From Perkinsus olseni (taxonomy: Eukaryota), in contig JABANN010000289.1 in assembly GCA_013115125.1 (NCBI GenBank), positions 1 through 42,387 of the forward strand: a stretch of 42,387 bases of DNA, read 5' to 3'. Below, piece after piece: positions 3,706 through 42,387 of this stretch; position 1 is the stretch's first letter, and the number at the start of each line of letters is the position of its first letter. Position numbers and translations under genes: made by a program. Below the pieces are notes generated by a model. It was not told the DNA's origin. It did not search any database and worked only from the letters and a program-made list of their open reading frames with translations.

Positions 3706-4544
3706 GAGATAGGAACGCTCTACGATATTAGCGGTGAATCATTTGCCTCACCATCCTGCCCATCGAGACTCGATGATCTACTCAATCACTGGACTCCGCT
3801 CCACTCGACTCGAGTTACTCGATCAGATCGAGTAACTCGCTTGGACATGGGCGACGACGCGTCCCCTGTTCTCTTTCAGAGTGAGCGCTGCCGAGGCGAT
3901 TCCCGTCAGTCAAGATTCTGATCGTGAATAAACTTCTCTCATGCGAGCCGTTCTGAATGCCCACTGAGACTTGCCCGGTGGCAGCCTACCACTGGCAGGA
4001 GCTCATGTTCATGATTCAGCCTGTTGTGTGAGTAGCTAACTTGCTCTCGTGTACTCTCGATCACCCGACTGATCAGCCTACCTCTTCGGGAGCCATGAGA
4101 GCTCTCCTGGGCGATTCATAGATTGAACGCCAGAGATCAGCCGTCCTGAATCAGGATTCCTGATGGCTTGCAAACATGGGTAGCCAATTCACCCGCTGAG
4201 TTCTCGGCCGGAGGGGTTATCGAAATTTGCTGTAAATTTCAGCCGGAGAGTATACTCTTGCACAGTGGTTTCCGTAATGTATCATTGTCTTCTGCGTAAA
4301 CCGAACTAGCCGGGATGCTGGCGGTTGAGCCACGCGTGAATATCCGGACCTCTGGCGGAGCTGCTCCGCTAGTTGCCAACTAAGCGACTTCGCCCCACTG
4401 TCACTTTCAACACATTTGCTGGGTAGAACAGGACACACGATCATCATAAACATCTTCGTTGTATCGGCCAATCAACCATCAGCATGGTATCAATCAAGGG
4501 TGCTCGGTAAAATATTGGTATAGGCCGATCTTCGACCTCAACCG

Positions 4545-5419
4545 CTACTCGGCATCACCCAACTCGTCATCCTCGGAGGGCTCTTCCTGATCCTGGGCAG
4601 TGCTTACAGCATTTTCGACAATTTCGTGATATGCGTCGCACAATGAACTGAACGAGCCAAAGCGCTTTTTGACTGCCTCGATGACAGCCCAGCAGACCCT
4701 GCTTAATCTGAACATCACTGCTCTCTCGTCATCCGTCATAATCTCCAAATCGCTGTCGAAGAGAGTCGTGTGCTCCACTGACCAAGCTACTCGACTGGCT
4801 GCCAGTCGCGCTCCCTCCCAATCCTCTTCGAAGATCGATTGATCGAGGTTCACGAGGGGGTCCAGTCCCGACTGGTCGGGAGGGGAACCCTCGAAAAAGT
4901 ATGATGATCTGTTGTTAGGATAATCGCCCACGTACAGGACGCTTTGCCTCGAGTAACTACAGTGAAGAGGGAAACGCCGTAATGCTTCTTCCCAGCTTCC
5001 TCACCTGATCGAGAACGCAGTGCGTGTGCCCTTCTTGGGACAAATAATTGCCATTGTCCGGGGTTCTATGCTCCAAACGTTGATCTCTAATGCGGCCGTG
5101 TAGTTGTTCCTGTAATTGTGATTTCGGTAGTAGCAGCGAGCAAGCCCGAACTCGACGTCGAAGTATGAAGGTTGATCTGGTGGGTAGTCCTGAGATACGA
5201 CCAAGCCTGTCAATGGAATGTCGCCTGATCAACAGGACTAGCCAACAGCAGGCCAGAATGAGAACCAGAATGAGAAATCCTGATCCCGGTTACCAGCTAG
5301 TTGACACCCACCAATAGGTTCGACCTTACGTCCTGTATTATGTCCGGGACCATGGCCCCGGCTCCGGAAGCGAGGGGAAGCATCGCAGAAAGTGATGCTC
5401 CGATGAGTGCTTGGATCAT
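4545..5419 (-). CDS. Four-exon orphan putatively secreted protein with acidic C-terminus
   Basis: Exons 5419-5330 (MIQALIGASLSAMLPLASGA..., signal-like), 5296-5225, 5189-5005 and 4956-4545 join in frame through introns of 33 nt (GT-AG), 35 nt (GC-AG) and 48 nt (GT-AG). Ends ...QEEPSEDDELGDAE*. Confidence 0.65.
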
Positions 5420-6210
5420 CGTTCTATTATCCCTGCAAGGGCAAGCGGAATACCGTATCGTGCGCGCCCGGAAACGGGGAATCCCCGTCGGGGATATGCC
5501 GCTCAATCGGGCGAGCTGATCCGTGCCATGATGGCACTGCCATCACTTTGGAGGAAGAGAGTGGCGGCGGCCCATGATGGTTGCAGTGAAAATAACTCGT
5601 TGACAGCAAAGTCGCTATGGACTCTGTCGGAAACGCCGACCTAACTTAGGTCGCTGACTCTGTTCACCGAAGCACGCGAAGAGTGGCACGGGTTTTTCCA
5701 AAAAACTTTTTTGGAGTGCGCTCTATGGCATCGAAGCCGAAGTTACGGCTCAGCCGTAGCTTACAGCATGGGATATGCTTGTGGTAAATGAAAGGTCACG
5801 CGGTAGGGGAATCGTCTGAGATAATCTACGGACCTCCGATCTGCTGACGGCATCCGGTCAGGCTCCCCACCCGCAGGTGGTTGTTCTACCCGGTTCTTCC
5901 AACGACTAGTGAATCTCGTGCTTGTTTCTGTCCGCTGGTATATTCTGGCACTCAGTGCCAGGCACCGCCATAATATGTACAGGATGAGTTGTACGGGTTT
6001 CACTATGAGCCCCTCAAGCAGCGCCGAGGGTTGAAGAATCACTTGCATGATAGCGTGACGCAATTAGCGTCGACGCTGTCGACAGGGCATTGGAAGGTGT
6101 TGCACACCATGGCCTCGTGCCTGAACTCTCCTACTCTGCCCTGGGCAGATTAGCCTGCCGCAGGCTGCGAATATTCATTCTGTACACCAATGAAACAAAG
6201 TCACTTTTTT

Positions 6211-6484
6211 TTGAAGTAAGCGTCGTCCCAGAACTTTTTGATGCGCACTGCTGCCGACTCACCAGCGTAGCTCATTTTGCACTCTTAATTGTACAAGTCA
6301 TCGGTCTCCATGGTGATTTCCTCGGCAATTGGCCCCGTTTGAAGGCCAAGTTTGCAAGGGAAGGGAAGTTTGCTTCACTGGTGATATGATATCACTGATA
6401 TCTCTCAACACGCGCGAATACCTGACTCCTAGGAGCGGTCCGTAGAGCCACCACCGAGCTCAGGAGAGAGATTGATGCCAGGCG
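6211..6484 (-). pseudogene. Truncated copy of the 5' part of the 9944-10641 gene
   Basis: Clear nucleotide similarity to 10376-10624 (e.g. ttgaagtaagcgt.gtcccagaactt.ttgatgcgcac; accgagctcaggagaga). Lacks the ATG segment and has tca>tga relative to the paralog. Confidence 0.75.
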
Positions 6485-7147
6485 GCAGTCTCTCTCCTGA
6501 GCTCGGTATTAGCTCTTATTTGAGCTCGGTGCAGCGGCTCTTCTAAGTACTTGAACGCAATCGCTCTGCATCTACATCTACCGTAGATGATCTACGTGAT
6601 GTCGGTAGGTAGTCGACTACAGGTGAGAACAAGAAATCTCCGGAGTGCACGCGGACAGAGAGCCCACAGGCGTCGTCTACACGGTGTAGGCTACACCCTT
6701 GCAGCTGCCTGGGAGGTTGCGACCAATTTCTACAAGGTGACGTGACGGGCGTTGATCTTCGTATACTCACGGGCGCACGGTAGGGCGACCTGTGCATTAA
6801 TTGGTTAAAAAAATCAGAAATGCTCGGCTTGCCCTGCTGAACAAAATGGTGTATCATACACCGTGTATGCCCATTCTCTAACTCTCAGTAGTTAATGATT
6901 TCGTCTCGACTGAAAATCTACTTGCAGAACACACAGTGGACACAAGAATCATGCACGTGTTGGGTACGTCGATGCGAGGATATGACCGTTGCTACTATTG
7001 TTTGCGTATCCTTATTATTGCATTATCGCTCGCCAAGATACTCGCATGTATATTTGAAACCGCCGGCCCCGCAGGCCGAGACGGTCGTTCTAATTAAGCT
7101 CCATTCCTCCAGTCAGGGGAGGGTGCGTTGTCAACTGCGGATCTAAC

Positions 7148-7175
7148 AACGCAAACGCAAACGCAAACGCAAACG
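7148..7175 (+). repeat. (AACGCA)n microsatellite, ~4.7 units
   Basis: aacgcaaacgcaaacgcaaacgcaaacg read directly. Confidence 0.95.
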
Positions 7176-8239
7176 ATCCTCTGTGCACAACGTCCATCAC
7201 TAAGCAACATATTGAGACTGCCTGGACAAATTATCTTTCGGGAGGTATTAGCTTGATTTTGCCATGGCACCCCGTGTTACCTGCAAGGAGAGATACTGCT
7301 CGATTAAAAATTTTAATCAATTAGTGCACAGGTGACCTGTGACAGGTCGCCCTACCGTGCGGGGGGTCACTGCGGACGTACTGGATGCGGAGGACTTGGA
7401 GCAGTACTCGAAGAATCTCAGTGGAGAGCTGAAACGTGTCATTTTCGGAGAAATGGCTGCTTCATCGCGACATATTCACATGGTTGAGGTTCCATTGGGC
7501 TCAGACAGGCGCTCCACAGAATGGCGCGAAAGAGTTCGCAACTGTCCGTTCATTTTGAAGTCGAAATCCCGTCACGGTGGCACCGTGGCATCCAAGTCAT
7601 CGTTGTTAATGGACGACCCGGTAGGTGGATCATCTAAGATGATCTACGGTCCGTAGACTACGGATCTCCAACGCAGGAGGTTTGGTAACCTGTTGGAAGA
7701 ACCTTGTAGAACAATCGTCGTGATCGCTCTACGGTGTTGAATCTGCGCGGTTCTGCCGGCGAGTAGGGGGTCTGCCAGCCTGAAAGGGTACTCTCTACTA
7801 GAGAGTGCCCTACTAGACAGTCTCGGCAGGAGACCCTCTAGTGCTTGTCACTAGCCTGGCACTGCCAGAATGACGGTATGAGCTTTGAGCGTCGCACTTC
7901 TCATCCTTGCTCTCACATACCGGGATTTATGAATCGTAATTTCGCGGAGTTTAGCTGTCGAGTCGACTGTGGGCAAAATTGCCTTCAACCCTCGGCGCGG
8001 TCGATCAGACGGGACACTGTTTTTGGACGCCGTTTCATACCGTGGCCTGGTTCCCGAAGTTCGGGACCCGACCTCGCGGACAATTGGTGGTTCGCGAGTC
8101 GGGGACGTGGGAGGATTAAACCTGAGTGCTCATCGAACGCGTTGATAATGCGCTTTTTCCAGTTTCAACTTATTTCGACTAACGCAACAGTACACGCGAT
8201 CAACATCCACATCACTATTCATGTCACCACAACATAACA

Positions 8240-8935
8240 TTATCGCAACAGTTTCAACTTCTTCTCCGGAGTGGTCCACCCGGGTAAGGTGCGAATGACA
8301 TTCTCCGCGAGCCATCTTCTGTCGATGAAGTACTGATGAAGCCAAACCGTGCCGGGCTTGTACTCAGGCCATTCACTCGGGGGATGCTGTTCAATATACA
8401 CGGCGGCCTTGGTACAATCGCCATCATCCATGATCTCAACGATCGAGGGCATCATCTCGTAGAAGGGATTAATCATGGAAAAGTACAGTCCAGCCTTGTC
8501 CGCCGTATCAGTTCTGTCGACATAAGCACCTTTAGGACCAGGCCCAGCGCGGAACCTCCAGCTCTTATCGCCGTGAAGACTGAAGAGGCAATCAGTGATC
8601 ACACACGAATAGATGATTATTATAATTACAAATATGTGGTGCTGAATCTAGATCCATCAGGTGAGGTTGCCAACGCTTCAATGGAATGATAATGATGGCT
8701 CTCTTCAGAACCATTACCCCCAAACCTATGAAGATTCACAGTCAACTTTTCCTGTTCATAATGGATGATACAATCTTTGTTGATCGAGCCACCTAGCTCG
8801 AAGATGTTGTTGGCTAGAGGCTTGGCCTGAGAAGGGATACTGGAGCACACACTGCCATCACAGAGCACTCAGCCAGCGTAATTCCCCCGAAGCTAATTGC
8901 CGCAATCGTCGCTACACAAACTACGGTAAAGTGAT
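8240..8935 (-). CDS. Lineage-specific secreted-protein family member (paralog of 9944-10641), possibly a pseudogene
   Basis: Last exon FSLHGDKSWRFRAGP...FSMINPFYEMMPSIVEIMDDGDCTKAAVYIEQHPP...PGTVWLHQYF aligns by eye with the 9944-10264 ORF. Hydrophobic leader (FTVVCVATIAAISFGGITLA) upstream, but no clear ATG. Confidence 0.6.
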
Positions 8936-9943
8936 AATTAGCTGCACAGCGCTGGGTTGAGGAAGTCTCTGTCACTTGTGCTGATTAAGATAAAGTAGTT
9001 TGATCCTCGCTCGTACCTTGTCTTGAGAGACGGTGCGTAGGGCCACTACTGAGCTCCCAAACGACATCAAGGAGAGGATGGAGGCGAACATTGTACTGTA
9101 ACTTGGTACCAGGGTGGCTGAAATATTTCAAAGTGAAATATCTCAAGAAAGTTTCAGTGAAATAAGTAATCGAATATTTCACCGGAAAAAAATTTCAGTG
9201 AAATTTTCACCTTTTACGAAATTTCAGCGATTTGGGCTAATTTCGGCCGTTTTTGGCACTGTAGTAGAAGTTAGGGGAGTGCTGATCAACAGGAGTCTTC
9301 GATAATAGTGCAGATTCAATAACTGCACGCGGTTCGGCGTTGCCCCCGTCACTCCGTAGCTCATGGGATGTAGTCGCCCTCGCCGCAGTGTCGAGCTTCG
9401 CTTGGAATCAGTAGCGGGGGGAATACCTCGGGTTATGGCATTGCCCAAAAAGCTGGACACAGTCGACGCGCTCGAAAAAACGCAAGATAACAAGAGATTA
9501 CCGCCTTATTGCAATGGCACGCACTCCTCACTTTGGTCATTGTTCAGCGCTCGGAGCCCGCATGTCTACATGCCAGAGGGCCTCTATATTCAGCATGCGA
9601 GGGGCATCGATTCGGCTATGCCTTTTCGGAAACCTGTCCTTCACGACTCGTGAATCACGAGGGGATCATTCAATTGCTAGTGCTGATTTAACTGGGTGTA
9701 CTCGAGCTTCTGGCCAAGAGTCTCTTAGGCCTCGGGTCTCGGGGCTTGGGGCGCCAGTCGCCTGCAGGCCACTTACAGAAAGAGGCCCACGGAGCCTGTG
9801 GCAAAGGCTGGTGAACTCGCTCAGTTCGCAGTGTTAGGGATTAGTTATATGAAGCACGACAGTAACCTCTGCAAACAATAACATCACAACATGTCATGAC
9901 AGTCGCTCATGCGGCATGAGTCATGCCTCGGTGGGGCACTCTT

Positions 9944-10641
9944 TCATTTCTTGACCTCTACTCTATCTCGGGGAAATTTCCCCATAAGCCATTTTATCTC
10001 GTTGAAAAAATGGCGTAGCCAGACGGTCCCGGGCTCGGAACCACGTGGAGGGTGCTGGTCAATAGTATAAACAGCAGCTCGCTTGCAATCGAAACCGTCA
10101 TCGACAATCTTCATGATTTGAGGCAACAATTCGAGGAAAGGATTGACCAGAGAGAATCGTTGGCAGAATTTTCTCTCGTCTTCTCTTCGGTCCAGATAAT
10201 ATCCATCGGCGCTAGGCCCAATGCGAAACCTCCAAGATTTGTCGCCGTAAAGGCTGAAATGCACGGAAGATCATTCCTAATCGAAGAGACCGATTCTCCT
10301 CATTAGTATTCGGCACATAGCTTCTCTCCATCGTCCAGAGTCACGTTCGTTCCGATATGATGATAATGGCTTTTCTTGAAGTAAGCGTGGTCCCAGAACT
10401 TCTTGATGCGCACCACCGCCGACTCACCAGCGTAGCTGATTTTGCACTCTTTATATTGTACAAGTCATCGGTCTCCATGGTGACTTCCTCGGCAATTGGC
10501 CTCATCGGAAGGGGAGGGAGGATTGCTTGACTGGCGGCATCTCCCAACACTCGCGAATACCTGCCTTCTAAGAGCGGTCCGTAGGGCCACCACCGAGCTC
10601 AGGAGAGAAATCGATGCAAGGCAGTAAGCCAATGGAGCCAT
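9944..10641 (-). pseudogene. Lineage-specific secreted-protein family member, apparently frameshifted
   Basis: Signal-like start MAPLAYCLASISLLSSVVA at 10641. Last exon FSLYGDKSWRFRIGP...FSLVNPFLELLPQIMKIVDDGFDCKRAAVY..QHPP..PGTVWLRHFF. I could not join the middle exon in frame with canonical splice sites. Confidence 0.6.
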
Positions 10642-12710
10642 TGTGGCAAGAGAAAGGCTATCACTAATTGTACTTGGAAACACCCACGACATATTCTTCC
10701 GAATCGGCACCACTACATCCGTGTGGACCCTCGGAAAATCACTGCGAAGCGAGTGAGGTCTTCACTCCTCCGAGAGAGTTTGGATGTAACGTGATAACCT
10801 CGACGCTTTATTTGTCGAGGGACAAGAGGGTGGCGTGGCTGTCAGAATCCGATAAGCGATTTGAGACAGAACTGGGAAGTTTCCTGACGTGGGCGGAAGC
10901 TAGCAAGAGATTTAAGTGTGGACAATACACACCGTGTGTAACACACGGACAGTAGTAGTATTCCAACAAAGCCTGTTCGAGTTCTGTTGGGGATCTATGC
11001 CGACGAGCTGCTTTCATTTGGCAACGCCACTGTCCGTTGGGCTGATGATTCAAATTGATGTGTGCGTCCCTCACGCTGCTCACTCCATCTACTATGTCAA
11101 AGGTGTTTAATTACGTTCTTAGTCAAAAAGTCGTCGTGTCCACACAACTTGTGTGACACGATTTCGTCCAGGCTGAGCGAAGTATGAACAACGTCGTCCT
11201 TAGGAATCCTGAGTTAAGATTATATGACCTCCATAGCTGTTCGAACGGCGAGGACCGAACCCAGTATACGAGCCGTGCCTTCTTCTTTGTGAAAGACGGT
11301 AGCTGCTTCTTGAGGAAGAACCGTAAGTTTCTCAAGAGAGGAGCTTTAACTTCAAGTTTAGGCATTTCTTAGCCTCCTTCTGGAAGTAAGGACTCTTCAT
11401 ACCGGCTCACCCGCAACTTGGGAGCTTTTTTACGAGTATATCTCCCAATCTGTGCTCCCGCAAATCGAACCGGTCACCTCGCAGCTGTCAAGCGCGCCAT
11501 CAAGCATCAATAAGACTCCGTTCTAGATAAAATTCAGCTCCTCAACTGGCACACACTTGTTGTCTATCTTCATCCAGCGTTCGTTCCTATCCTGTGGCCG
11601 TTTTAAGTGATGAGGCCTCCCGAGTTCCGAGTCCTTGGTTACCGTCTTACGAGCCTCGCTAAAATCTCTGAGCACTTGAATTCGCGGTTAGCACTTGCGC
11701 TGGATGCAACGGCTTCTTGCGAGTACTTGAACGCAATCGCTCTCACGTGTTCCTGTGCATATCGAAGCCCTGTATTCAAGAAAAGTGCGATCATCGGATA
11801 TATGAGTCGCCGCCTCGAATTGAACCTGGATCACGCGAGTGATGGTCTGCCGCTCTACATATTGAGCTGCGTTGGAGTAGTGTAGCCGTGGTTTCTCAGT
11901 AACTTGCCGTCTGACTACGACTTATGCTCACGATTCCGACCCACGCCGCCACGGGTCTCCGCCGATTCTCGGCAAGGAGCGGTTCCTAAAGCTCGTCAAG
12001 GAGGAACTCCAAGTTGTGACTTTTTCGCGCTCCTCGAGAATGAGATTTTTTCGCTGCTCAAGGCCGGGGTGGTAAGCACTCCTTCCTCGGAGGTCTGCCT
12101 CAGGAGAAACTCCTGAGTTGTAGAGACATTTTCTCTAGTTTTTTGCTTTTGTGGGAACTTTCTGTCACGCTGCACGCATGCACAGCCATTTCACTCCTCG
12201 GCCGGCAGCTATGTGACTGAGCAAAATCATCAAATCGTAATCTCTTCCTCGAGCGGCTCAGCAAGGATTTAGAATATCATCTTCTGGGCATATGCTTGTG
12301 TTGAGACGTCTGTCAGTATTCGCTTAAGAGAACTTGGGAAACGCTTTTGTCCATGAAGTTGACAGTCTTCTCTCCACACCATTCGTGCCGAGTTGAGTGA
12401 AGGTGCTGTTAATTTCGTCATTCCCTTACGCTAACCTTTCTGATGTTCATCTAGGTCTTTACTGCCCCGCTCCAGCGCGGAGCCTCCCGGACGCTGTATC
12501 TGATTTTTGGGGAAGAAATCCTAAGCGGCCTCCGCTGGTTTCATCATGAACTCGAAGGAAAGCAGACTTAGCCGGCCACTTTCTTGTTCATTTCAAGCAG
12601 GGAACAGGAAAACTTTCGGAGGAAAATATCACCAGGGAGATGCTGCCGGTAGTATTCTCATAATTTCCCCCATCAGTGGGTTTAGTATCATTATCACCAT
12701 CCCCCACTCC

Positions 12711-15700
12711 ATGCTGGCCGGAGGCTTCTACCGCGCACTCTTATCCAAGCACTACTCGGGGCCTAGCAGGACGGTCAAGGTCGTCTATAGTTCTCGAACG
12801 GGGACCTCGAAGGCAGCAGCCGGCAGATTGAAAGATACTCTCGAATCGGACAAGATTCGCGTCATCTTGCTCCCAATCGAGCAGTATTCCTACGAGGAAC
12901 TTTGCGAGGAGTCTTATCTCGTACTTTTGCTCTCCACGGATACGGATGGAACTCCTCTGCCCGGGGCTAAGGACTTCACTGAGCAGCTTCGCGATGCTGT
13001 TTACGATTTTAGAGTTGACAAAAATGTATTGGAGAAGTGCAAAGTGGCGGTGATTGGATTTGGTTCGGAAGAATACCCGGCCAAGCACTACTGTAAAGTA
13101 GCCAAAAATTGTGACGATTGGTTGGCCAAACTTGGAGCCCAGCGAGTTTCGCCCTTACTGTGCATTAGCGATACAAGAGACGTTGAGAAGCAAGTTAGCA
13201 GGTAGTAAGGGGGAGCAGCACCTGCCCGACTGGAAGAGCTCTTGAAGTCCGCTATTGTGTATAATTGGCGTGACAGCCGGCGGCGCCCTTTGTGCTGAGA
13301 GTCGCCCAGTGAGAGATCTGACGATTTGTACCATATGCAGTAGGATGTATGAGGAAAGCTTCTATCGAGAGGAAGGGGAGCTGGGAAAGTTATTCAAGAA
13401 TCTCAGGTGCATCGACCTGATTAAGAAGGCGTATGCAAGGCTGGATGCCGAGCCTACTGATCAGCGGACGGCTGATCTCGAGGATGATGTGGAATCGGTA
13501 GGCTCTGAGGAGTCCACGAGTGATACTGAGGATGGCGATGTGGAGGATGCTAGTGGTAGTAGGGGGTGCGGTTACCGCACTGCGGTACTCACGTCAAAAA
13601 GGTTTCGGAATATATTCGGGAAATCTCCTAGTAGTGAAATTTACACAGTAGAAGATCTCGGGATACGCGGCCACTTGCCGATGGTCGAAGGTTTACCTTT
13701 CGTGTAAAACAGCTTGTTGGGTCGTGGCCGACGTCCAAGGCAATTGAGGTCGTGAGTCTTGGTCGATCTGGTAGCCTCGATAAGAGCTGACGTTTCGCAT
13801 TGTAGCGGAGTTGCTCACATGGATGTTCTCCATGCCTCTCGCTCGCGAGGTCCTTGGTTCTATTCCCGGATGTGCGTATTGTCTTCGTACTATACATCAC
13901 TCAGAGTGTTCTACCGAGGAGGGATTCCTCGTCAGGTGCCTGCGGTGGCAACGACAAAGAGATGGTTACTAAGAAGCACCGCGCAGCCCTTACTCGGGAA
14001 GGCTATCGACTGGTTGGCAGCCACAGTGCTGTGAAGCTGTGCAGATGGACCAAACATCAGGTCATAACCTTAGCGATGGGTTTATATACATAAGCATCAA
14101 TGATAAATAGTGTTATTTGCATATGACGGAATAATATGGGAAATTTACAGTGTGTGAGAGTATAAACAAGTGGAGGAGTTTACAGATGAACTCCTTCGTA
14201 GCGAGAATAAACTTATTTCCTTGCAGTGAGCTGCGCGGATGCGCATATTATGTTTGCTAGTCATGCCCTCTCAGCAGTCATGCAGTTTTTTTCCGTTATA
14301 TCATCTTGTTAAGTCGTCGACGACCGAGGCCTTCAGACATGCTGCCATGTTGACGACCTGTTCTCGAGCTGAGCAAATCTTGGTATAGATGTTGAGTCGT
14401 CATGCAAGTTTCAGTCGCACTGCTTTTGCCCACTCGCACGCGCTTCCTTCTGTTGTTGGTGGCTGTCAAGACTTGTATGACTCCATCTCGATCGAGGGCC
14501 GACTTGTCTCTGTCCAGGTCCGAGGTCGAGGAGGATGCTACAAGCATTCCTTCTACGGTATTGAGTCCCATCAGTGCATGGAGGCCACAGCGAGTCTGGC
14601 CTGCGCTAACAAGTGCGTGTTCTGTTGGAGGCATCACCGGAATCCTGTTGGCCGCTCCTGGACGTGGGCACAGGACCCTCCGGAAGAGGTAGTAGGCAAT
14701 ATTTGACCGCGCGCCACGAAATTCGTTGCACGTTTTTCAACTTTTTCGTACCTCGTACCGATCTCGAATACCATAATTTATGGACTGCGAAACGGTCCCG
14801 AAATTCTCGCGTGTTATCTTCGCTGAAACCTTCGCGTTGTTGATTCAGATCGTGAACGGTTGGCTCGGCAACCATGCTGGGATGGTAAAGGAGTTGAAGG
14901 GCGTGCCAGGGGTCACTCCTGAGCGCTTCGAACAGGCTAAGAGAGTGAGGCATTGCGCACTGAGTCTTGTTGGTAGTAAACGGGGAAGGGGGAGCTGGTG
15001 TTGTTGTGGCCCTGTTATGAGTATGCTTACGCGAAGCATATCTGTCAACTGAATGCAGGAGAAATTTGTGAAACGTAAATCGATCTGGATGAGTTGTCAA
15101 GTGCGTTGGCTGGAAGTATCCAAGGTTGACCCTTGCTTGATACAGATAATCAGTCATTCCGTTGAACCAAATAACAAAATCACTACTAGGGGCTTTCATC
15201 GTGTACCTCGGAGTTGTTGTAATAATTTTTGCTCAGCTATGTATCGTACCATCTGCTTCCATTTCGCTGATTATTTCCACTGTAGCAACCGCAATCTTTC
15301 TCCACTAATAATACCAGTAGTCCTTTCTTTCTCAAAATTTATTATCAGCAGTAGCCTCTCGCCGACTTGCGGGGCTCGCCGACTTGCGTGTATTCTTCGG
15401 AAGAAGTTCATCTCGTCTCTTCAGGAGAGCCGATCATTTATCCTCAAATAAATACAGCGCTGGACCTGCTCCATCAGAACGGCATTTCGACCTTTATGGT
15501 CACCAATGGGCAGTTTCCCGAGGCCATCCGATCCCTCATACCAGTCACGCAGCTGTAATAATGGAGCGTGGGGGGATCGAACCTGTGCAGCTTAGGATCT
15601 TACCGTAGCTCTCATCGTTTTCTGTATCTATCCGGCAGTGCATTCGAATTCAGCTTCGTGATTGAGAATTGTGTGGTTCATACCGTGATGAAAATCTCTT

Positions 15701-26545: not shown

Positions 26546-26837
26546 AATTCGAGGGTTACAGTGTGTAACGTCAGCGACAGGGAGCTCCCTAATCTCTATC
26601 CTCATGAGTAGGCCTCCCATCTCCTGTTGTGAGTAGCCGGGGCGTGAGGCGAACGCGCTCTAGCAGAACTCAGACTACATGCCATGTAGTACATGGTGCT
26701 GTCACAGGACTGCTGTGGATAGCTGGGAGCTTGGCGGCCCCAAGTTGGCGCCATTAACTCATGGCGGGTTAATTTGTATCTGAAGGGGACAATGGCTGTT
26801 CAAGTTGTGGACGGCAGAACTGTGATTCCCACTGTAG

Positions 26838-27410
26838 ATGCGGCCTGGAAAAAAAATCAACACAAGTCGGCTGTCAACGACGAGAAGCCAGGGCGACCAC
26901 AGTGGTCGGACCACAGGACGTCAGCCAGGCACTTGGTTTCGCTCGATTAGGGGTTCACCTTGGCGTCCGCTAGGAATTATCACTAAATTTGGTAATGTGA
27001 AGATTGCTGTTGGGGAATACTCGGAGCTGCTCCGGCACAATTATGAGCTAGTCAAGTACTGCCAAGATCCCATGATGAACGGCTTTCAGACAGCGTTGCC
27101 AAGTGGCCTTACAGACCAATGGTCAGACCATGCATGCGTTGAATCTGTACTTGCCGTTGCTGGCGGATCATGAGATGGCTTCAAAAATCAATCGACGGCT
27201 TTCCTCATCCCACACGGGTGATAATAAATGCCGAGTAAGGTCATCTGTTTTTGCTACAGGACAGAGCAACCCCTTACGGCGTGAGGCTCATGCTGATGTG
27301 TTTAGAGCGAGAGGCTGCAGTGGGTAAGTGTGAGTGGCCGTCAACTCCCCTGACTTCAACCCGATCGAGAAATGCTGGTGGATGTTGAAGTCTCGTTTCT
27401 CTGAGACGCC
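26838..27410 (+). mobile_element. Degenerate Tc1/IS630-family DDE transposase fragment
   Basis: FLLQDRATPY (27248-27277; cf. FQQDNAPxH), then EWPS and, after a frameshift, NSPDFNPIEKCWWMLK (cf. WPxxSPDLNPIExxW). D-to-E spacing is about 35. Confidence 0.8.
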
Positions 27411-28855: not shown

Positions 28856-29245
28856 TCAGCATTGTGTCAGAGCGAAGTTGAGCAGATTTACGACGTGGAG
28901 GTCCTTGCCGTCATAGTGGAGATGGGCGAGGTCAGAAGCCTTCAAAGGTGCACCGATTTTGGTGATCAGGTCCTGCAGCTTGATGGTGTCGGTGACCGTC
29001 AAGTCGCTTGTCGAAGCGTCGTACTTGTAGGGAACACCGGCCTCACTGCCGCTCTTTTCCGTACCCTTAGTGGGAGTCCACGAAGCCGAGATGTCGAAGG
29101 CTGTATCACTTGTGACAGTGACCTTGACAGTGCCTTTACCCTTAGATGGTATATCCGGGGACCCACAGTAGCTGCCTGATGGACGCCCAGCCTGGAGTAT
29201 GGCGTGAGCAACGAGGAGAACAATGACGCCGAAGAGGGTGCGCAT
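28856..29245 (-). CDS. Small intronless secreted protein, 129 aa, two cysteines
   Basis: Signal peptide MRTLFGVIVLLVAHAILQA, then PSGSYCG, a beta-rich body and a terminal Cys. Clean ATG-to-stop ORF with visibly C/G-ending codons. Confidence 0.85.
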   Translation of the reverse strand: MRTLFGVIVLLVAHAILQAGRPSGSYCGSPDIPSKGKGTVKVTVTSDTAFDISASWTPTKGTEKSGSEAGVPYKYDASTSDLTVTDTIKLQDLITKIGAPLKASDLAHLHYDGKDLHVVNLLNFALTQC

Positions 29246-29899
29246 TCAGCCGTGTGATTTTATGAACTGAAATTTGCACATTAGGAACGAGTAGAACTTT
29301 CATTTACAGCTGGCTACCATGACCAGACACTCCCCTTCTTGAAGAAGTATAAATTTCCGCCGGAAATTGTGCTGACTCGTTCCTGTTGTCTCCCCTCTGT
29401 CCCTCTACTGCATGGGAAGACCAGATCAACTGGACGGTTGGCGCGAATGCTGCCTCCTCAGCAGCCTCCAACTCGAGCCTTATGTGAAAGCTTCCTACTC
29501 TAAAACGGAATTTTGCGTTCGGTAGGTTCACAAGGTGATCGATGTTAGAGATTTTCATGGCCACTCTGTGCGGGAGCTAGCTTGTGGGCAGAGTCTGCCC
29601 ATAGGCGGGGACAGCGCTGAACTTGACAAGATGTGTCGTCCCGGATATTTTCGCTCACCGTTACAGGGATGTTAGTTGGTCATATATAGACTACGACCCT
29701 AGCCGTTCACTGCTGTGTTAGCCAGGTTGAGCGGCGCTGTTGCTCTCGTTCCCTAGGCCTCATGACTCAAACTGATGGCCTCTCGGATGCACTATAGTGA
29801 CAACTTCCTCCATTGCTGCTGAGTTTAATGAATCTCAAGGTCTACCTACATTTATTTTTTGAGCGCATGAATTCGCAGTAGTGTTCCGTGCTATAACCT

Positions 29900-32450
29900 A
29901 ATACAGTGTGGCACGGTGTAGCTATTTGTGACGGGGCTCAAAGTGAATTGGTGACATCGGACTGGAGAGGACTTTGGAGAGAACGTGTGTTTAGTAGCGT
30001 GACGAGTTATGCGCGCGATTGCTCGGATGATTGCACGCACCGAAAAGAAAATGCGCATGGAGCAAATGCGGGTAGCGACGTTGGGACTCATGGTTCGCAG
30101 CAGCCATGGTGGTGGTTTGTGTCACCGTAGTGCACTAGTGGGAGCGTCCAAAGCTAGCCAAGCTAGCCAGCTCAGCTTCGTAGGCACTCTAGAAGGTGTG
30201 TATCGCATCTCATGATCTACTGTTGGTGGGGTACCGCTTTCTCACGTAGGCTACGTGTCGAAGCTCCATATTTACCCATCACATGAATCGTTAAATTCTT
30301 TCTAGTCGTATCGGCGATTTCGTTCCGGAGACTAAAGTCGTTCGGGTCTAGGGTTGAGGACCTCAACTTGAGGTTGTATTCGCGCAAAAAGCCTCCTGAC
30401 TGTTTCGTGCGGGGATTACCAAGCTTCTCAATGTAGTTGAAAACGATTTGAATGGCTGCCGAGTTCCTGACTGAAGGTTGGGATACGCAAGATGAATTGA
30501 TGGTTGTGAGGCAGCCCCCTAACAAGTAATGTTATCGGCTGTTGTTGTGCTCGGCACAGCACAGCACTTGCCAACCGATTCTGGATTCAAGCGCCATACT
30601 ACGGAAGGGCAACACTTGTCGTCGGCCCTACATCGATACACCCGCAGTGATGGCGTATACGCGAGATGCAAAAACGAGCTCTATAGGACTGTGGCAACGA
30701 AGTGGATTACTCGGGTTGATCTGTTAGCTTCATCCAAGGGGTACTCATCAACTGAGTATCGATCCATAGTCATCTCGTATCTGCCTGAGTTGGATGTCTT
30801 CACTGTGGATTCCTCAGACTGACCCCAGTCGTCTCATGTGGTCAGGTGGATGTTCTGGGATCTCCCGACTGAGCTGTGGATATCCGAAATATCTCTCTAC
30901 CTACAGACAGTTCTTCCGAAAGGTATCGAGGACTCCAGGGTACTTCGTGGGTAAGTTGGTACGGAATATTGTACATCGATTTCGCTACGCCCTATTCGGT
31001 CGCTGCAGTGTAATATTCTGGTTGGTGTATGTGAGCCGCATTTGACTCCGCCCCTACCGCCGGGGGTATTACTGTAAAATTTTCGGAGGGTGCCTACGGA
31101 TTGATGCATGATGGGCTGAGCCGAGGAGAGCCCCCTTGTTGACACCATATGGCAGCGTTTACTACGATGCTTGTGTCGCGTTCCATCAGATGTTTTCTGG
31201 AGACGGCTCTCCCGGATTGTCTCATCTGGCGACCAGTCAAAGATTTACCGGGTAGGCTCGAAGGGGTGGTGCTCCACCGCGGGTGGACCACCGTTGGTCG
31301 TCTCGTTAGCTGCGTGTCACGCAGTGCGTGGTAAAGTTCTCTGTTTAAAGTTGGCATGCAATGCATGCCATGCATCGAGAGCCTCGGGACCTGGGTTTAG
31401 GGAACCCCCTGGTAGACTTGTCCCTTTCGCACTCCACGGTCCATCATGTAACCGTCGCGAGCCGTTTCGTCTTCAGTGAAAATTCTTCACTCCACGTCCG
31501 GGCCGGAGTTTCCAGGTGTAAAATATGATTTTAGCTGTTCTCCATAGGCTGGTAAAACACCTCGGATTCGCAGTCAAGCGCACTCGGGATAATGCATGCA
31601 TCCTGGAGGTCCCTGTGAACAAGGTCGTAGTTTCTGCAATGTGTGGTCGCTGCCTTGGCGAGATGGTCACTCTGCTGCACCCTGTTGCGGGCCTAGTAAG
31701 TATCTGGTCTGGGAATACCTACCATCTATGGGCAGTTCTGCCATCGCCATCGTACTGCAAAGATGTTACGTGAAGTTGGGCCGTGTCGCCGGGTTGTCCC
31801 CGATAATGCCAAGAATCTGAATGGCCCTGAAGTCAGCAAGGTATTGGATTAATATTACATAAGGATGGTCCACTCTAGTGAATATCATCCCCAAGGCAAT
31901 TCGCCTTCAGCGAGATGGCTACTCCGTCGCGATCTGTTGCGGGCCTCTACTTGCGGCTTCATGAATTACGATAGATGCTACTTCTGCGGCTTGGTGCATA
32001 ACCCCACTCTACTGCTGCAAGGAGTACGGAACGTTCCGAGCGTGACGCTCGGCAAGGCTAGTTCAAGGTGCAACGAGAACCACGGTGCCTCGTGTTGCAA
32101 GAGCGAATCCCCTTCTTCTCCGTCGATCCGGCTACGAATGCACTTGTAGCTATCAGCAGTGGGGCTTCTTTGTGGTTACATGCTTCATTCGCCCGAGAAA
32201 CCGCATCACCTCAGAATTGGTCATACTCTTTTCAACACGCAGTCGATGAACCTTGTTCAGTCTTCAACACCGGACAGTGTCAGTGTCTGTCACTGTCCAT
32301 TGGACAGTATCGCGATACGTTCCAGTCGCCTGACGTCCACCATTCCTCGGATTCTCACCAAACCCGGTTGGGCGAGAACGGTTGGGCCAACCGTTAGTAA
32401 CCGAATACACAAGAACACTTCAACGATTGCAGCGGAATCGGTTCAAAACT
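29900..32450 (+). mobile_element. Heavily decayed LTR retrotransposon pol (Ty3/gypsy order RT then integrase)
   Basis: Fragments in correct order across frames: MFWDLP and LQTVLPKGIEDS (~30850-30936; RT VLPQG), LVYVSRI (~31022; eroded YVDD), WRPVKDL (~31227), AHSG*CMHPG (~31578; integrase Zn finger), PSKYLVWEYLPS, VVPDNAKNL..VHSSEYHPQGN (~31793-31900; rve core). Boundaries approximate and no LTRs identified. Confidence 0.65.
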
Positions 32451-32704
32451 TCTAAGATGGATTGATTCAATCAATCCACTGTGAAATCTATCATTCTTGC
32501 TCCGTGCTGTAGGTGTTGGTGTGAAGCGTATCGATGATAAATGCATCGTAGCGATTGTGGCCTCCAAGGACTATCATGAGCATTTCCGTACCCGAGAAGA
32601 GGGGTATCGAGATCGGTAAGATGCGATACAGACTTAGTGTGTGCTCATCCGCATCTTTTAGATGGGAGGAGATGGCCCGTCATTTGGAAGATGAGATCAT
32701 ACCG

Positions 32705-33956
32705 TCATTGATCATTCACCGAAACTCTCCTCGGATGTAAGTGTCGGAAATGACGGTTCTCCGACTCGATGGAATTCCAGCCTTTTCCGTTCGCTTGCGT
32801 ATCTATCAAAGTCTTTGATTCAAAGATGATACAATCGTTGCAATTCACTACGCGTTTCTCCTCGCTGCCGTCCTCGCCTGTATCATCGTGCTCATATTGC
32901 GAGTACTCTACAAGATCATCTGTGATAGACAGTGGTCGATATTTCTATCGTGGATTTTCCCGCTCGCTCGCAGTCATTGCAGGGCATCTTGAACACTCTC
33001 AGGAGCATATTTCACATAAGCGAGTCTTTTCTGTGTTCATGACGCGACCGTCGCCTCCCGCCGGGCAGCATCGCTGTGGGTTTATGCTCATTAACTGCTC
33101 CTCTTCAGAACGCAAGAGTGGCTTGATTTCATCGGCTTCAATCTGCTGCCAAGGCCTCGAAGGTCGTACCTAGCTCCTCTGCCACCGTCTCCACTACAGC
33201 CACGTGAAACCGTCGTCTCTCGACCTTTGAGAGTTCGCCGTCCCCTAGCTGATGGTAAGCCTTCCATCTCACACCGTCCTATGGATGGAAATTTGCCATG
33301 AGTTTCATTGGAATTCATCTGGGAATTTTCCTTTGCTCTCGTGGATGCTTACATCCCTATCGTCATCAGTTCCGTTCAGCGTGAAGTAATATGTTGAAGT
33401 TAGCGATGTGCTGCCTACGGTCTCAATGACGAGTGCTAGTATTTGATTCACTCAAATGAAAAATGTCGTTGACATGTCCCACAATCTGATGCACCGCGAC
33501 CGGCCTCTCGCCAACTCTATCATCGTTGATCATCGCAAGGAGAGGCTGCTTGGCTTGATAGACTCTTATGATGGCGCGAATCTATCACACCCATTGTCAG
33601 CAATCGTTTCGTTATCGTTAAGCTGATGCATATATGAGGCAGGGCACACCTCAACTTTGAATACCTTTCAGATCCTGCATGGCGCGCTCGATCGAGGTCG
33701 CCCCGACGTTTTTCATACTAAAGCTTCTAGTCAGCGATATTGTCGAGTTGGCGGTCTGCCAGGGAGATCCCTTTGTATCAGCCTTGTCGCTTGGCCAACC
33801 GGCCGACCTGCGTACGGCAGAAAAAATTTTTTTCAGAGTAAGTTTATCGTTGTTTTCTTGCCGCAGAGAATTTTTCGTGCAAAAAGGTTTTGAAGCAAAA
33901 TGAGATACCTGTGAGTCGCAGCAAAATTTTCGCTGCACTGCTCTTATCATCCGCAT
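32705..33956 (-). CDS. Possible multi-exon hypothetical gene divergent from COG2
   Basis: Several open minus-strand segments bounded by AG/GT (e.g. IRAIIRVYQAKQPLLAMINDD..., VRPSRPWQQIEADEIKPLLRSEEEQL). No recognisable domain and I could not build a fully consistent model. Confidence 0.3.
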
Positions 33957-37000: not shown

Positions 37001-37905
37001 GACTAGCTGTTGTGATTATTATAATTTTATTTCGACGCATCGTCTCTCAGTTGCCCAGCTACTAGCCTTATGCATCGATCGACTCAAGCGGCAAGTATCC
37101 GAGGTCGAAGCATGTCTGATAAAGTCTCTTGTTGACGCTGTTGGTGAGAGAACCCCAGGGGTTCAACCCCTTCACGTCTCAAATGATACCTTCCTTTCTA
37201 TCAGTCCCTAAACTTGAAGGTGTCAAGCAAATACCTGTGCTCTATCGTATGACGGCCAAGTCGGCTCCGACGACTCACAGCGCATATGTGGACAACGCCA
37301 GCAGCATCCTCACTGATTTCGCTCAGAAATACAGCAAAGATCAGTAGCAATCTCCTAGCCGTGCTCTCTTCTCTGTTGACTTCCCCTATGATGCGCTGAT
37401 CTTCTTGTCTTTCTGTCTCCTCGCCGTTTCGTGTCTACTCGGCGTTCATTCGTTTTCGGAAACTTTCCGTTGATTCGTCTTGTTTAGCGCCCTGCTGAGC
37501 TCCCGGTCAACTCTCTGTGTAGAAATTCGTAATTTCCTACGTCTGTTTCTCAGTCCCGACGAAGTGAACAAAGTGCTGATCCGTGTCGGCGACGAATGTG
37601 CAGAGAGATTCGCAGAACGGTGTGAAGCCGTCCTGGAGAAGGAGGAATCTTTGAGTCGGTTCACGCATCAAACGAAGGGTAGGAAGAAGTAGTGATTTGA
37701 ATGTATCACTGTTCTCCATCCAGGTTCAGTAGCCTCATCTGAGTTTTCGGACATCGACAAGTTACGGGCGCAGTTGTGGTTGGATGCGTCCCATTTCATC
37801 GCTGCATTGCCCGAAACAGAGTCCTTGAGCATCCAAGCCCTCCGCGATGCGACGAAGTCGGGGAAACTCGTTACTGATAGATATATACCAACTACGGCGG
37901 TCTGA
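34043..37905 (+). CDS. COG2: Conserved oligomeric Golgi complex subunit 2, multi-exon
   Basis: N-terminal MAGVAVPLSEF...ENK|IQEELVQLINDHYSEFIGLSTKMED matches the COG2 'VELINxDYxDFVxLS' block. Also PSVFMPTYPVQFAENYAAAQDFI, YFSLRQREIA, LEGVKQIPVLYRMTAKSAPTTHSAYV and C-terminal SDIDKLRAQLWLD. Stop TGA 37903-37905. Confidence 0.88.
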
Positions 37906-38042
37906 GAAAGGTTTCCATGAAAGATGAGATGGAAGAGTTGGTGGTTCAATAGGAGTATGAACGCACATGAGGGTGAGAAGAAGTTCCAGGGTGTGAGGGA
38001 GTTGCAGCACGCAAGCTCCTATCTTGCAAAGCGCTTGCGGGT

Positions 38043-39200
38043 TTACTTGCTTTTCACCATCAGCTTTGAGACAAAAGAATAGTACCTATCGCGCGTAGCC
38101 TGCATGGTCGTTACTTCAACTGCTTCTGCAGTTGTTGCGAACAAGTACAAGGTATTGTTCATCAGAAAGTGTCTCAAATCGAAGTCGTGCGTCGTCAGGG
38201 GCGCCTCATCATCCCTGCAGTGGTGAAACTTGTCACTTTGGAGTGTCATTCCATTGAGGTCATTCCACACGGGTTTAAATATCATGTATCATGTTAAAGG
38301 CGACAGCCTTGTGGCCATGACGTTAGTCCACAGAATACAGTTACTGCATCGTACAACGCCAACAAACACCGCGACTATAACAACAGAAAGCAGAATTGTC
38401 TTCCTGGAAGACTCCCACGCCTGGTCCGACCAGGCGTGGGTTCTTATCTCACAGTGGGCTTGGAGGGCCCACCATGATGAAAAACCCGATGTTGTACCGT
38501 ATTTTTTAACGACACTCATATAGCACCTTGCAGCTGCGTCCTTGGAAGGGTGCTTTACTTTGTGCCACGGCCCTCCCCGTCTTAGTCACGAACTGGGAAA
38601 ATTCCATATTTCCAAGCGCGAACTCCTGCCACCTACTCGGCTGCCATGGGAAATCGAAGAACTCGCTGTTGCCGATAATAATCTCTTCATCATCTCCGGT
38701 AGAGGCGCCTTCAGCGTCTATGTGCTGTATGAGTCCCCTGGGACATCTGGTATCCTGGCAAACCCCAGTAACGACACCGCTCATCGATTGTGCCGCGTTT
38801 CACCACTTCCTCTTGATGTGCGAAATGCCGTGGTAGATGGGGTATAAGTTGGCCTACTGGGTTCTCCCCCCGACGAAGCAACTCCACGACTATCATTAGG
38901 TTTATTCGGGAATCAAATGTCCAACAGACTGGACGAGCGTGGTCTAGGACAGATTCTGGAGTTAAAGGAATCCTTTAACTCGATGTGACTGGCGCCGAGG
39001 AGGTTTCTCGACGGAGGTTGTTGGTCACTGCTCGCGTTGATGGTGAACGCGACGCTTGTCTTTGCGTTCATTTCGTTTGGTTCCTCGTTCGTTAAAGTGT
39101 ATTGTGGTTGCGCTAGGCAAGCAAGGTTTGTGCCAAACACTGGTGGCACTACTTGTGTTGGTCTCTGCCGATCTCACGCAGTTTTGTTATCTTCCACTGA
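38043..39200 (-). CDS. Possible multi-exon hypothetical gene convergent on COG2
   Basis: Run of open minus-strand segments (38913-39149, 38711-38896, 38506-38784, 38289-38519, 38043-38285) with plausible splice sites. No domain recognised. Confidence 0.3.
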
Positions 39201-40574
39201 GGAGGTCCTCGCCACTCTGCTCGCCAAAGTATCGATGTGCTCGGTTGATGAAAGACCTTACAATGTAGTGGCCACCCGAGACTGGGAGATATGTGTCAAT
39301 GTTCACCTTTTCATCATCGACTACCCGGAGCGACCTAGAACTTAAAGTGTCACTTTAAAAGTGATGATGTTATCCCGATCACTGAGGAGATCAGATGTTT
39401 TCGTTTGTGGGCGCAGCATGTGTCCAATCGTCGGCGTGAGATAACCCAATGAGGTACCGTCGTTTTCATTTGATGTTTATATCACTCCACCTTTGAGTGG
39501 TGTGGAAGTCGTGGCGCACGTAGTGATTGTGGTGTGAAAGTGTTTCAATATAGCTGCCACTCAACGATGAATAACATTCATAGCCTTTGAAGCCGATCAG
39601 CGTTGACGCTCACAACAGTGTTGTGAGCAAACTGAGCACTCTGATGTCAGGGCGTTCGCGGGGAGCGTTTGCTCTGTGTGATCGTAGACATTAATCTAGG
39701 TAGGCTAGAGCTTGTATTGCGAAGAAAAGTTAATGTTCAGTCTCTATTGGTTTGTGGTCCTTACTGGTTGGACCATCCTTACGTGAAGTACTATCGTTGC
39801 AAGTTGCAACTTGCAACCCAAGGCTCGGTGGGTTGATTATTATCTATCCATTAGTATCGGTTGGTTGTGTTAATCTAGTGGGATGAGTGCATCCTCTCGC
39901 GACACTGAGAACATTGACATGGAAACCCAAAACGGCTCCCAACTTGGGAGTCCCAAGAACGCCCTAGAATGTCTTACTCTAGAAAATTCAAACTACCTTG
40001 GAAGCAGTCTGCTTCAAGCAGAGAAACAGGGGGCATGATCCGGAACTGAGAAAAAGAGAAGTTCAAGGCGTCGTGAACTTAAAGAGGTAAGTTTATTACT
40101 GAATAATCCACGGGCTGAGACTCGAGGCGTTCTACTAGCCGGCGACTAGTAGCCTCTGCTCACTAGCGGGTTAGTGCAGAGCTCTCGGTTCAGGTGCTCA
40201 GCATGCTGCAAGACTCTGCAAGTGAAACTCACGAGTCCGTCCTGCCTCATTGGATGATAATGGCCTCTGCGCAGGGCCCTATGTTGGCACAAGCGACAGA
40301 AGTCTTCCGGCAGTTGACCTGCTTCCCGAGCACGTTGGTAGTGGCGGATCGCCTATGAGCTGAGGTGAAAGACCTTGAGCAACGTGATCAAGATATACGG
40401 AGGATGAGAGTGAGACTCACTCAGAACTCACTCAGTGAGTTCTCCTGAGTTAGTCCATGTAGTATGATAGCATCGTGAAGACCTATTGTGTTGTCACTTA
40501 TCGCATCATTAGCAGTGGTACTACTTATCATTCCAATTTGCGTTTCCGCGGATCGTGGTCCATAGGACATGAAG

Positions 40575-41350
40575 TTGAGATGCATACCTAGGAGAATTAT
40601 GACGTGATGGTCAGGGTGTCTGGAACACGGCATTTCTTGCAGCAGTCGTTGGTGCGCCGGCTATATGAAGAGGAGTGGGAGGATGGCGCCTGAGATAGGT
40701 ACGGCTATTCATCTAACCGACTCCCCATGGCTCACTCCTCTAGGTGTTACTCGGTGGGTAAGTGGAATTAAGTCGCTTTACAGACTGCTGCATAATTGGA
40801 ACATACTGGCACGACTCATGGACAGCATGGAAGGCAGGCTGCCTTCCATGCTCGTCCCAGCTGCCTTAGGCAGCTGGGACGAGTGAGTCACCCGTGAATC
40901 ACGGACCGTGATAAAGCCATTAGGGAGGAGTTGAGGTTGGCCAGAATGATTCCGTGATTCAGAATCACTTTCGACAGCACATTGTGTCTCATGTAACACA
41001 CCTACCGCAGAATTCTCGCTCTCACGCCAAGTTCATCCTCAGGTTGACAGATAAAATCAGGGAACTCCACTCGGTACTGGCTCCCTCAGGGAGCCTCCCT
41101 GTATCCGAGACCAAGCGCAACGAGCCAGAGAGCAGGAGGGCATGGACTTGCTGCGACCTCTCGTTGACCTGAGTAACACATCGCAATCCGACAGCTGCTC
41201 ATTCATGGAAGGGGTAAAATTGATGGACGAGACGTTGAGCCAGATGAAACACAACCCTGTCCTCGCCAAGGAATCCATCCAGCTCGTGGATCAAAGGTAC
41301 TACGTACACGTGTGGAACACGATTCACACGCAATTCCCAATGGGAATTCA
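40575..41350 (+). mobile_element. Degenerate hAT-superfamily transposase fragment
   Basis: LTPLGVTRWVSGIKSLYRLLHNW (40731-40800; cf. hAT TRWNS...LxRLL), followed by DLLRPLVDLSNTSQSDSCSF..VDQRY (41145-41300; cf. LLxPxxxxTxxLQSD). Interrupted by stops and insertions. Confidence 0.6.
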
Positions 41351-41477
41351 TGTCAATGGGAATTTCCCATACGACCCTAACGATCTTCGCATAAATTCGC
41401 GTCGAAAGATTGAATTGGGCAATGGGGTCCTCTTGAATTCCTGCAGCCTGGGAATACTCTGCAAGTGCTTACTCTGC

Positions 41478-41528
41478 AGGGCTCTCTGTCAGAGGCTACA
41501 GCAGCTGTAGCCTCTGACAGAGAGCCCT
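41478..41528. repeat. 51-bp palindrome: 25-bp perfect arms with 1-nt spacer
   Basis: agggctctctgtcagaggctacagc-a-gctgtagcctctgacagagagccct. Confidence 0.95.
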
Positions 41529-42387
41529 TGCTCAGCAGCTGAGCCTCAGCTGTAGTACAGCTGCGTACCTAGTTATATTCGTTCTGCGTCAACCTTCCTT
41601 TAACCGAAATCATTTCGATTTGCGATTCGTAGATCACGCATCGTAGTATGACAACTTATTTACTACCCTCCCCTACTCCGTCTCATAAGTTGTTTCTGAT
41701 TTTCAGGGCGCGAGCCGAAAGCTCCGGCCCGAAGGTGCTGAGCACCAGGTGCTCATCCGCTAATCCTCCTTTGTCTACTCGGCTCTCCAGAGCGATCGTG
41801 GAGCGCCGGGCACGGGTTGTCATGTAGAAGACTCTTCTAAGAAGAGCTTAGAATGAAAGGCCGACGACCGCCCCGCCTCACCGGAGCAACCTGCGACACT
41901 ATAAAGCTAACCGGTAGCGTGACCATCGCTTCGCTAGCCCGTGCTGATATGCACCGTCTCTAGTGCATCGGGTGCACTGTGCACATTCTCGGCATTTGCG
42001 CTAACCATAGATTTGTTCCACGATTCTCAGACCTACGACACTCTAGGGCACGAAAATGAAGCGGGAGGGGTACTTCGTTCTCCCGTCTTCACCCCTCGCG
42101 CCGGTGGCAAGTAGCCCTGGGCATCTAGTTCTTGTGCACAAGTTTCATTTCTTAAAGGCCCTCGGGGTGTCGGGAATCCCGACTCGTTATCCGATAAGTT
42201 ATCCTGCCAATTTTGTCTCTTCCGTACCGCTTTTTGCGAAGGAGAGCAGGGTGGCTGAAGGCTGCGGAAGAATCATTATTCCCTTCCCCAATAATTCCCG
42301 TTTTAGTTCCCGGGAATAATGACCGCCGTGGATGGGGACGAATGGACCCCATTTGGGGAACTATCGTGGAAATCGCCATATGCCCCT

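Follow-up and report, generated by a model that had tools for sequence, protein, structure and literature searches.

The question raised by contig JABANN010000289.1 of the shellfish parasite Perkinsus olseni (assembly GCA_013115125.1) is which process wrote the many short perfect palindromes, each built around one central unpaired base, that are scattered along it. The whole stretch of 42,387 nt, here called the window, was analyzed. An initial annotation had attributed the palindromes to the opening and repair of DNA hairpins, through either excision of hAT transposons or an unusual end-joining pathway, and had proposed that spacer lengths be compared with shuffled sequence. Perfect inverted repeats with arms of at least 7 nt were therefore counted over the window for spacer lengths 0-12, using ten dinucleotide shuffles as controls. 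With a spacer of 1 nt, 122 palindromes were found compared with 2.6 in the shuffled sequences, an excess of about 45-fold, confirming the prominence of the one-base spacer. The counts for spacers 0 to 12 were 3, 122, 2, 4, 3, 5, 0, 3, 6, 1, 6, 5 and 5, respectively, and the shuffled controls gave 1.5-3.1 inverted repeats per spacer length. When arms of at least 10 nt were required, spacer 1 gave 12 palindromes and the shuffled controls none. The arm lengths at spacer 1 peaked at 7 (76 palindromes) and showed no steady fall-off. All 13 examples that had been listed with coordinates were exact in position and arm length. An apparent signal at spacer 3 in a score-based scan was rejected, since almost all of it was spacer-1 palindromes counted again.

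The palindromes proved to be parts of a larger unit. Eighty-six of the 122 spacer-1 centres are halves of a 22-bp motif that reads T[1-7]+revcomp(T)+T[2-8], where T is any 8-mer and revcomp(T) its reverse complement, and the other 36 are single palindromes with arms of 7-25 nt. Forty-one pairs of centres are spaced exactly 7 apart, each pair making one 22-bp motif, and what had been described as nested palindromes are in fact such pairs. Each unit is a single double-palindrome scar of 22 bp and not a set of independent or nested palindromes. At a unit length (k) of 8 the window holds 64 copies of the motif, 31 exact, 14 with one mismatch and 19 with two (45 with at most one), whereas five shuffles gave 0, 0 and 0.6 copies, respectively. 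Applied to other unit lengths, the same rule found 2 exact copies at k=7 and none at k=9-12; a geometry in which no base is lost gave no copies at k=5-11, and one in which two bases are lost gave none at k=8-11. Merging left 99 events, about 2.3 per kb, comprising 63 full scars and 36 single palindromes, a share of full scars (63/99) that carries an ascertainment bias towards long palindromes.

The composition of the scars was then compared with the rule. In a non-circular test, sites were picked solely by their inner 6-mer triplet (n=39), and both centre bases were complementary to the matching outer base in 31/39, one in 7/39 and none in 1/39, the chance expectation for both being 1 in 16. 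The arms of the exact scars end at 7 in 24/31 and 25/31 cases, approximately the chance rate. All 22 bases of the 31 exact scars are accounted for by the local 8-mer, with no element sequence left. The T words of the scars with at most one mismatch are all different (45/45), indicating a process and not a repeat family. Recognizable scars add about 1.25 kb to the window, roughly 3% of it. The scar is a genuine mutational signature, both strong and clearly defined.

Some palindromes and scars stand outside this pattern or at its edge. Exact scars following the rule with a 7-mer were found at 3360 and 9192, and one following it with a 6-mer at 6154; they could be variant duplications or the work of another element family. 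One 17-bp palindrome is found twice, at the unrelated positions 7790-7806 and 28797-28813, by chance or as a favoured target word. The only long even-centred cases in the window are 28549-28586 (18-nt arms, 94% complementary, 2-nt spacer) and the scar at 39796, whose T is itself palindromic. At 769-812, two perfect 18-nt arms separated by an 8-nt spacer form an inverted repeat that adjoins the palindrome at 814-834 and falls outside the one-base rule.

These scars are most probably footprints of hAT-type cut-and-paste excision, resolved through one dominant joining route. As the fixed unit of 8 suggests, insertion of the element would duplicate an 8-bp target, T. On excision, the transposase would seal each flank into a hairpin with loss of the flank base bordering the element, and the hairpin tip would carry the complement of the lost base, as is established for Ac/Ds and as the complement rule shows for the scars. 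The left hairpin would then read T1-T7, the complement of T8 and back along T, the right hairpin being its mirror. If the nick in each hairpin lay 8 nt or more from the tip, the single-stranded extensions would be complementary over exactly the inverted T and could anneal, after which flaps would be trimmed and gaps filled. Nicks placed anywhere beyond 8 nt would yield the same product, which exceeds the empty site by 14 bp. Annealing over the inverted T would explain why the length is fixed, why each centre is a single base and why the arms end at 7 at the chance rate. The single palindromes, with arms of up to 25-36 nt, may represent a minority of ends that were joined at other places and lost the opposite flank, and scars would persist where a frameshift of +14 costs nothing. 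The proposal of a mutational scar of hairpin opening, with hAT excision as its best source, is therefore supported in a more specific form, which includes the fixed 8-bp geometry and presupposes an 8-bp duplication. The other proposal, an unusual end-joining pathway of a general kind acting without that duplication, would not fix the length at 8.

A comparison within the window bears on the predicted gain of 14 bp. In the paralogue pair 6206-6483 / 10371-10622, the scar at 6381-6402 faces a plain 8-bp site (about 10,520-10,540) across a gap that, counted by eye from the alignment, is 14 nt long. Both segments belong with a set of tandem paralogous, partly decayed genes that includes 8240-8780 and 9944-10450 (minus strand), which share about 50% amino-acid identity and have no Pfam hit.

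The excision chemistry is known from Ac/Ds. Ds footprints are reported to be palindromes centred on the complement of the element-adjoining base, whose arms in yeast reach 20 nt, and microhomology is found at 85-100% of Ac/Ds joins in yeast and Arabidopsis (PMC5873905). The products are diverse, with 28 types among 128 Ds footprints and a longest P-insert of 3 nt in Candida (PMC5873905), and 5 types among 17 in Arabidopsis (PMC1978519). Flank-copied palindromic P-nucleotides, a complement at the centre, an 8-bp target duplication and joining by microhomology are common to these systems and the scars described here. The features of a hAT footprint present in the window are the flank-copied palindrome, the complement centre with one base lost per side and the 8-bp duplication, and it is solely from this geometry that the superfamily is inferred. 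Unlike the Ac/Ds case, one full-inverted-duplication product dominates here (63 of the 99 events), at about 2 per kb of natural DNA and with the element unseen. Literature searches at the level of listings and the openings of abstracts gave no account of this uniform product and density, of a genome-wide stereotyped scar of full inverted duplication or of such palindromes in Perkinsus, and no paper joining Perkinsus, non-homologous end joining and Ku70 was found.

Other known systems were compared with the scars. RAG joints arise somatically and lack a target duplication over which their ends could anneal. Cutting of the non-transferred strand first, with a hairpin formed on the flank, is reported for both Hermes and RAG in V(D)J recombination (PMC6900584, PMC10368747), and Hermes makes 8-bp duplications at nTnnnnAn (PMC10368747). 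The T words analyzed here have thymine at position 2 in 34/90 strand-symmetrised observations (p=0.014 uncorrected, 10 positions examined), a weak and symmetric bias in the direction of the Hermes preference as reported in that source but much weaker. For mPing, the target duplication is described as supplying the microhomology that fixes the repair product (PMC4561436); there direct microhomology restores the empty site, whereas in the scars inverted microhomology adds 14 bp.

The same scheme could be carried out by another transposase that makes flank hairpins and an 8-bp duplication, such as a MULE or an undescribed relative, or by a domesticated host copy, and the absence of an identified element in the window, together with a superfamily assignment made from geometry, leaves room for it. 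A MULE with 8-bp duplications ranks first among the alternatives to hAT. MULEs duplicate 8-10 bp, and one of them, Muta1, forms hairpins on the flanking DNA with a duplication of 8 or 9 bp and repairs its donor site in a manner dependent on that duplication (PMC5499845). However, no scars were found here at k=9 or 10 and none is of an even-centred type. The hairpin reported for Muta1 is 43+43 nt, i.e. no base is lost, and more than 90% of its excisions in yeast are precise (PMC5499845), whereas the no-loss geometry has no copies in the window. A MULE restricted to 8-bp duplications would still fit. Dada elements, which are related to hAT, are present in Perkinsus marinus, where they target tRNA genes; Dada duplications, however, are reported as 6-7 bp and Dada targets as small-RNA genes (PMC3706591). 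Taken as a whole, another transposase of this kind is an unlikely author of the scars.

Explanations without any transposon were also considered. Replication template switching, or synthesis-dependent end joining, could write forward-inverted-forward micro-triplications, and the shape of the scar is indeed that of a miniature inverted triplication. Many lengths and spacers are expected from such processes, whereas the length here is fixed at 8 and both switches would have to be offset by exactly one base; moreover, a 1-nt loop cannot prime snap-back synthesis. As the origin of the scars in general this explanation is highly improbable, while it may account for some of the long singles, 36/122 centres being singles without a readable partner. 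The decayed inverted duplication at 6444-6516 would suit a fold-back event. It sits on a short quasi-palindrome that is present in the paralogue too, with the centre base unchanged, and the paralogue runs on without the duplication, indicating that the right arm, which ends at 6516, is derived.

The possibility that the palindromes arose by sequencing, amplification or assembly, a concern raised in the initial annotation, was addressed using assembled contigs from four public runs over positions 1-20,000; the palindrome with 25-nt arms at 41478-41528 lies beyond this interval. All 67 centres were reproduced (67/67) within zero-difference contigs of run X3, which covers all tested sites and may be the source sample. 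Run X7, from another sample and study, contained at least 12/67 centres in zero-difference pieces, among them 67-718 and 19276-19851. The scars are also scarce in gene blocks and have decayed to varying degrees; for 4 of them a single later change in the middle copy is the best explanation. An artefact is close to excluded by these results.

The runs also bear on the age of the scars. Divergent run X21 shares 5% of words with the window and its matches listed cover 6 centres. By hand arithmetic on piece lengths, at most 8 letters are missing from X21 over 309-709 and none over 11108-11453, and it carries 14 and 15 extra letters over these intervals; its divergence over 309-709 is about 6% substitutions. 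The pieces do not lack enough letters for the scars to be missing, and therefore those at 353, 396 and 11141 look shared with X21, which suggests that at least some scars predate that split. The inverted repeat at 769-812 mentioned above falls in a stretch that X21 skips (709-866). Counted by event, the mismatch classes comprise 31 exact, 14 one-mismatch and 18 two-mismatch scars, and a hand estimate places substitution since scar formation at about 2-3%, with an older tail. The statement that this genome is being remodelled goes further than these data, since present-day activity was not shown. Short multi-copy segments with loose ends, with a summed X3 depth of 500-3,500 compared with about 160 elsewhere, were seen at about 1-71, 7000-7118, 9112-9225, 13242-13330 and 19742-19876; they are candidate dispersed repeats or remnants of non-autonomous elements, and no terminal repeats were identified in them.

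The distribution of the scars relative to genes was determined from centres with arms of at least 7 nt. Their density was 5.1 per kb at 3-11.5 kb, 7.5 per kb at 18.4-20 kb and 7.0 per kb at 38.1-42.4 kb, compared with only 0.26-0.48 per kb in three gene-rich blocks, in agreement with the earlier observation that the palindromes concentrate in intergenic and decayed DNA and are few in conserved exons. An insertion of 14 bp shifts the frame, and selection accounts for the scarcity in gene blocks. The gene at 12675-18390, which carries a flavodoxin domain and which we take to be TYW1-like, has 11 exons delimited by RNA-type joints; no centres were found in its 1,891 bp of exons and 7 (5 events) in its 3,822 bp of introns, a contrast that is weak taken alone. 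The introns of this gene are of the GT-AG type and 160-569 nt long, and its exons are mostly 120-170 nt, several being about 125 nt. A scan of JGI metagenomes with its first exon gave 344 pattern matches, of which 0 were confirmed.

Enrichment in introns and intergenic DNA could also be expected of selected functional elements, namely protein-binding palindromes or RNA hairpins. Such elements are hard to reconcile with 45 T words that all differ, with decay like that of neutral DNA and with scars that interrupt broken genes, nor are the scars clustered beyond chance (14/81 gaps of 40 bp or less, 12.9 expected). Function as a cause is, like artefact, close to excluded. The same gap counts leave local hopping or clustering of scars unsupported.

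Fragments at 40.6-41.5 kb, proposed in the initial annotation to be a hAT relic, were analyzed as a possible trace of the element. Stop codons break their frames and several scars interrupt them; by TRW-type motifs, they look like pieces of the hAT catalytic region. In ESM Atlas the pieces resembled ZBED1 RNase-like helical (0.90; 55% of cluster members), DUF659 (0.86; 18%) and hAT-like RNase H (0.88; 11%) entries, with recognition values below the tool's 2300 reference level. Pfam gave no hAT family among 21 window open reading frames (ORFs) or 13 ORFs of the relic region, phmmer gave 0 matches for a 63-aa relic piece against 1.84 billion representatives, word-index searches of longer proteins gave no relevant match, and a sequence search of the PDB returned only one irrelevant esterase (E 0.65). 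A single-sequence structure model consisted of two helices (pTM 0.31). The fragments are a probable but weakly supported hAT-like relic, a proposal favoured by the hAT-related look-alikes and not by the alignment-based searches. Around the relic, no terminal inverted repeats flanked by an 8-bp duplication were found, a pair that decay could have erased, and an element search of the window at two settings gave 1 and 6 loose candidates, none convincing. The relic adjoins the longest palindrome, as the initial annotation had pointed out. Their closeness is no evidence of cause, because the scar density there (7.0 per kb) equals that of other blocks (7.5 per kb at 18.4-20 kb) and the relic itself is scarred. 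It is a target of the scarring process and at most shows that hAT-like elements lived in this genome.

Several results weigh against hAT excision as the source of the scars. The relic transposase was not confirmed by Pfam, phmmer, word-index or PDB searches, and no complete element, bounded by terminal inverted repeats and an 8-bp duplication, was found in the window. Among the matches listed for positions 1-20,000 there was no clean empty allele in another strain and, in the four runs, no element-occupied allele at a scar site. A search with the flanks of the 64 scars found no two-sided paralogue and missed even the case at 6381, where the paralogue 8-mer agrees with T at only 5/8 bases; the alignment also contains another 14-nt gap, which the motif does not account for. 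The centre base of the 6444-6516 duplication is that of the paralogue and not its complement, and the bias at position 2 of T is lost on multiple-test correction. Finally, the Ac/Ds footprints cited above are mostly short and varied, were scored at single engineered donor sites and differ from the 22-bp product.

Table 1. Scars and related features of the window. Full scars are given by motif start and single palindromes by centre.
Feature	Position	Strand	Exact scars	One-mismatch scars	Two-mismatch scars	Single palindromes	Remarks
Type example of exact scar, CACAGGTGACCTGTGACAGGTC	7327..7348						First seven bases of T, full revcomp(T), last seven bases of T
Scar cluster	98..834		396		98, 353	379, 824	
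Scar-rich block, intergenic DNA and decayed genes	3233..11162		3418, 5474, 5523, 6381, 6575, 6848, 7327, 7643, 9640, 9906, 10926	3365, 4143, 5692, 5946, 6676, 8052	3233, 3761, 3802, 3978, 4348, 6050, 7622, 11141	3825, 4800, 5645, 5751, 6142, 6159, 7310, 7580, 7798, 9198	43 centres with arms >=7 within 3-11.5 kb
Decayed long inverted duplication	6444..6516						36-nt arms, 83% complementary, 1-nt centre
Introns of TYW1-like gene	13566..18341		13566, 17640	17945, 18320		17627	
Dense intergenic cluster	18800..19959		18874, 19138, 19293, 19713	19688	19938	18812, 19239, 19450	
Block	23355..33834		26675, 28798, 30353, 31354, 32805	26894, 28696, 31310	26696, 26730, 27272, 30243, 32030	23363, 25947, 29360, 29593, 32300, 32386, 32468, 33827	
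Exact scar	37150..37171		37150				Inside apparent short GT-AG intron (~37,144-37,205, judged by eye) of a multi-exon gene
Dense block	38398..42190		39343, 39796, 39936, 40001, 41080, 41530, 41825	40891, 41733	40947, 42169	38405, 38427, 38970, 39618, 40415, 40433, 40838, 40867, 41340, 41363, 41503, 41555	30 centres with arms >=7 within 38.1-42.4 kb
Probable decayed hAT-like transposase fragments	40608..41510 (40608-40823, 41148-41336)	+					ESM Atlas look-alikes
Longest perfect single palindrome	41478-41528					41503	25-nt arms

Other features of the window were also noted. A protein encoded in it shares 94% identity with one from Perkinsus olseni and 74% with one from P. marinus, and the DNA is thus from Perkinsus and olseni-like. 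A GC-rich motif of 11-14 bp occurs in six copies on either strand in gene regions (14709, 20956, 23456, 23559, 25092 and 35499); the copy at 14709 sits in an RNA-defined intron, and the motif is possibly regulatory, splicing-related or a tiny repeat. The short segments 15560-15588 and 34329-34357, on opposite strands, show a possible likeness to tRNA 3' ends.

Excision footprints are usually too varied to be recognized after the element is lost, whereas the scars described here follow a sequence-independent rule with almost no background. The number of element visits and departures, the target preference and the age spread of the activity are thus measurable from genome sequence alone, and the uniform product is informative on hairpin opening and end joining in this alveolate, and so on the repair of breaks in its lineage. 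If the scars differ between isolates, they would provide near homoplasy-free, polarised strain markers. A broader suggestion, which we hold as possible but doubtful, is that the scar is a leading insertion signature of the lineage, left by a transposase that forms hairpins and whose rounds of insertion and excision far outnumber the copies that stay behind, in combination with hairpin opening far from the tip and near-constant joining over the inverted 8-bp duplication. Such turnover may take the form of a few serially hopping elements, a near-futile cycle of insertion and excision, or a domesticated enzyme. If this suggestion is true, the process would steadily lengthen introns and spacers in Perkinsus, and its scars would serve, across the genome, as a natural record of an alveolate end-joining pathway not yet described.

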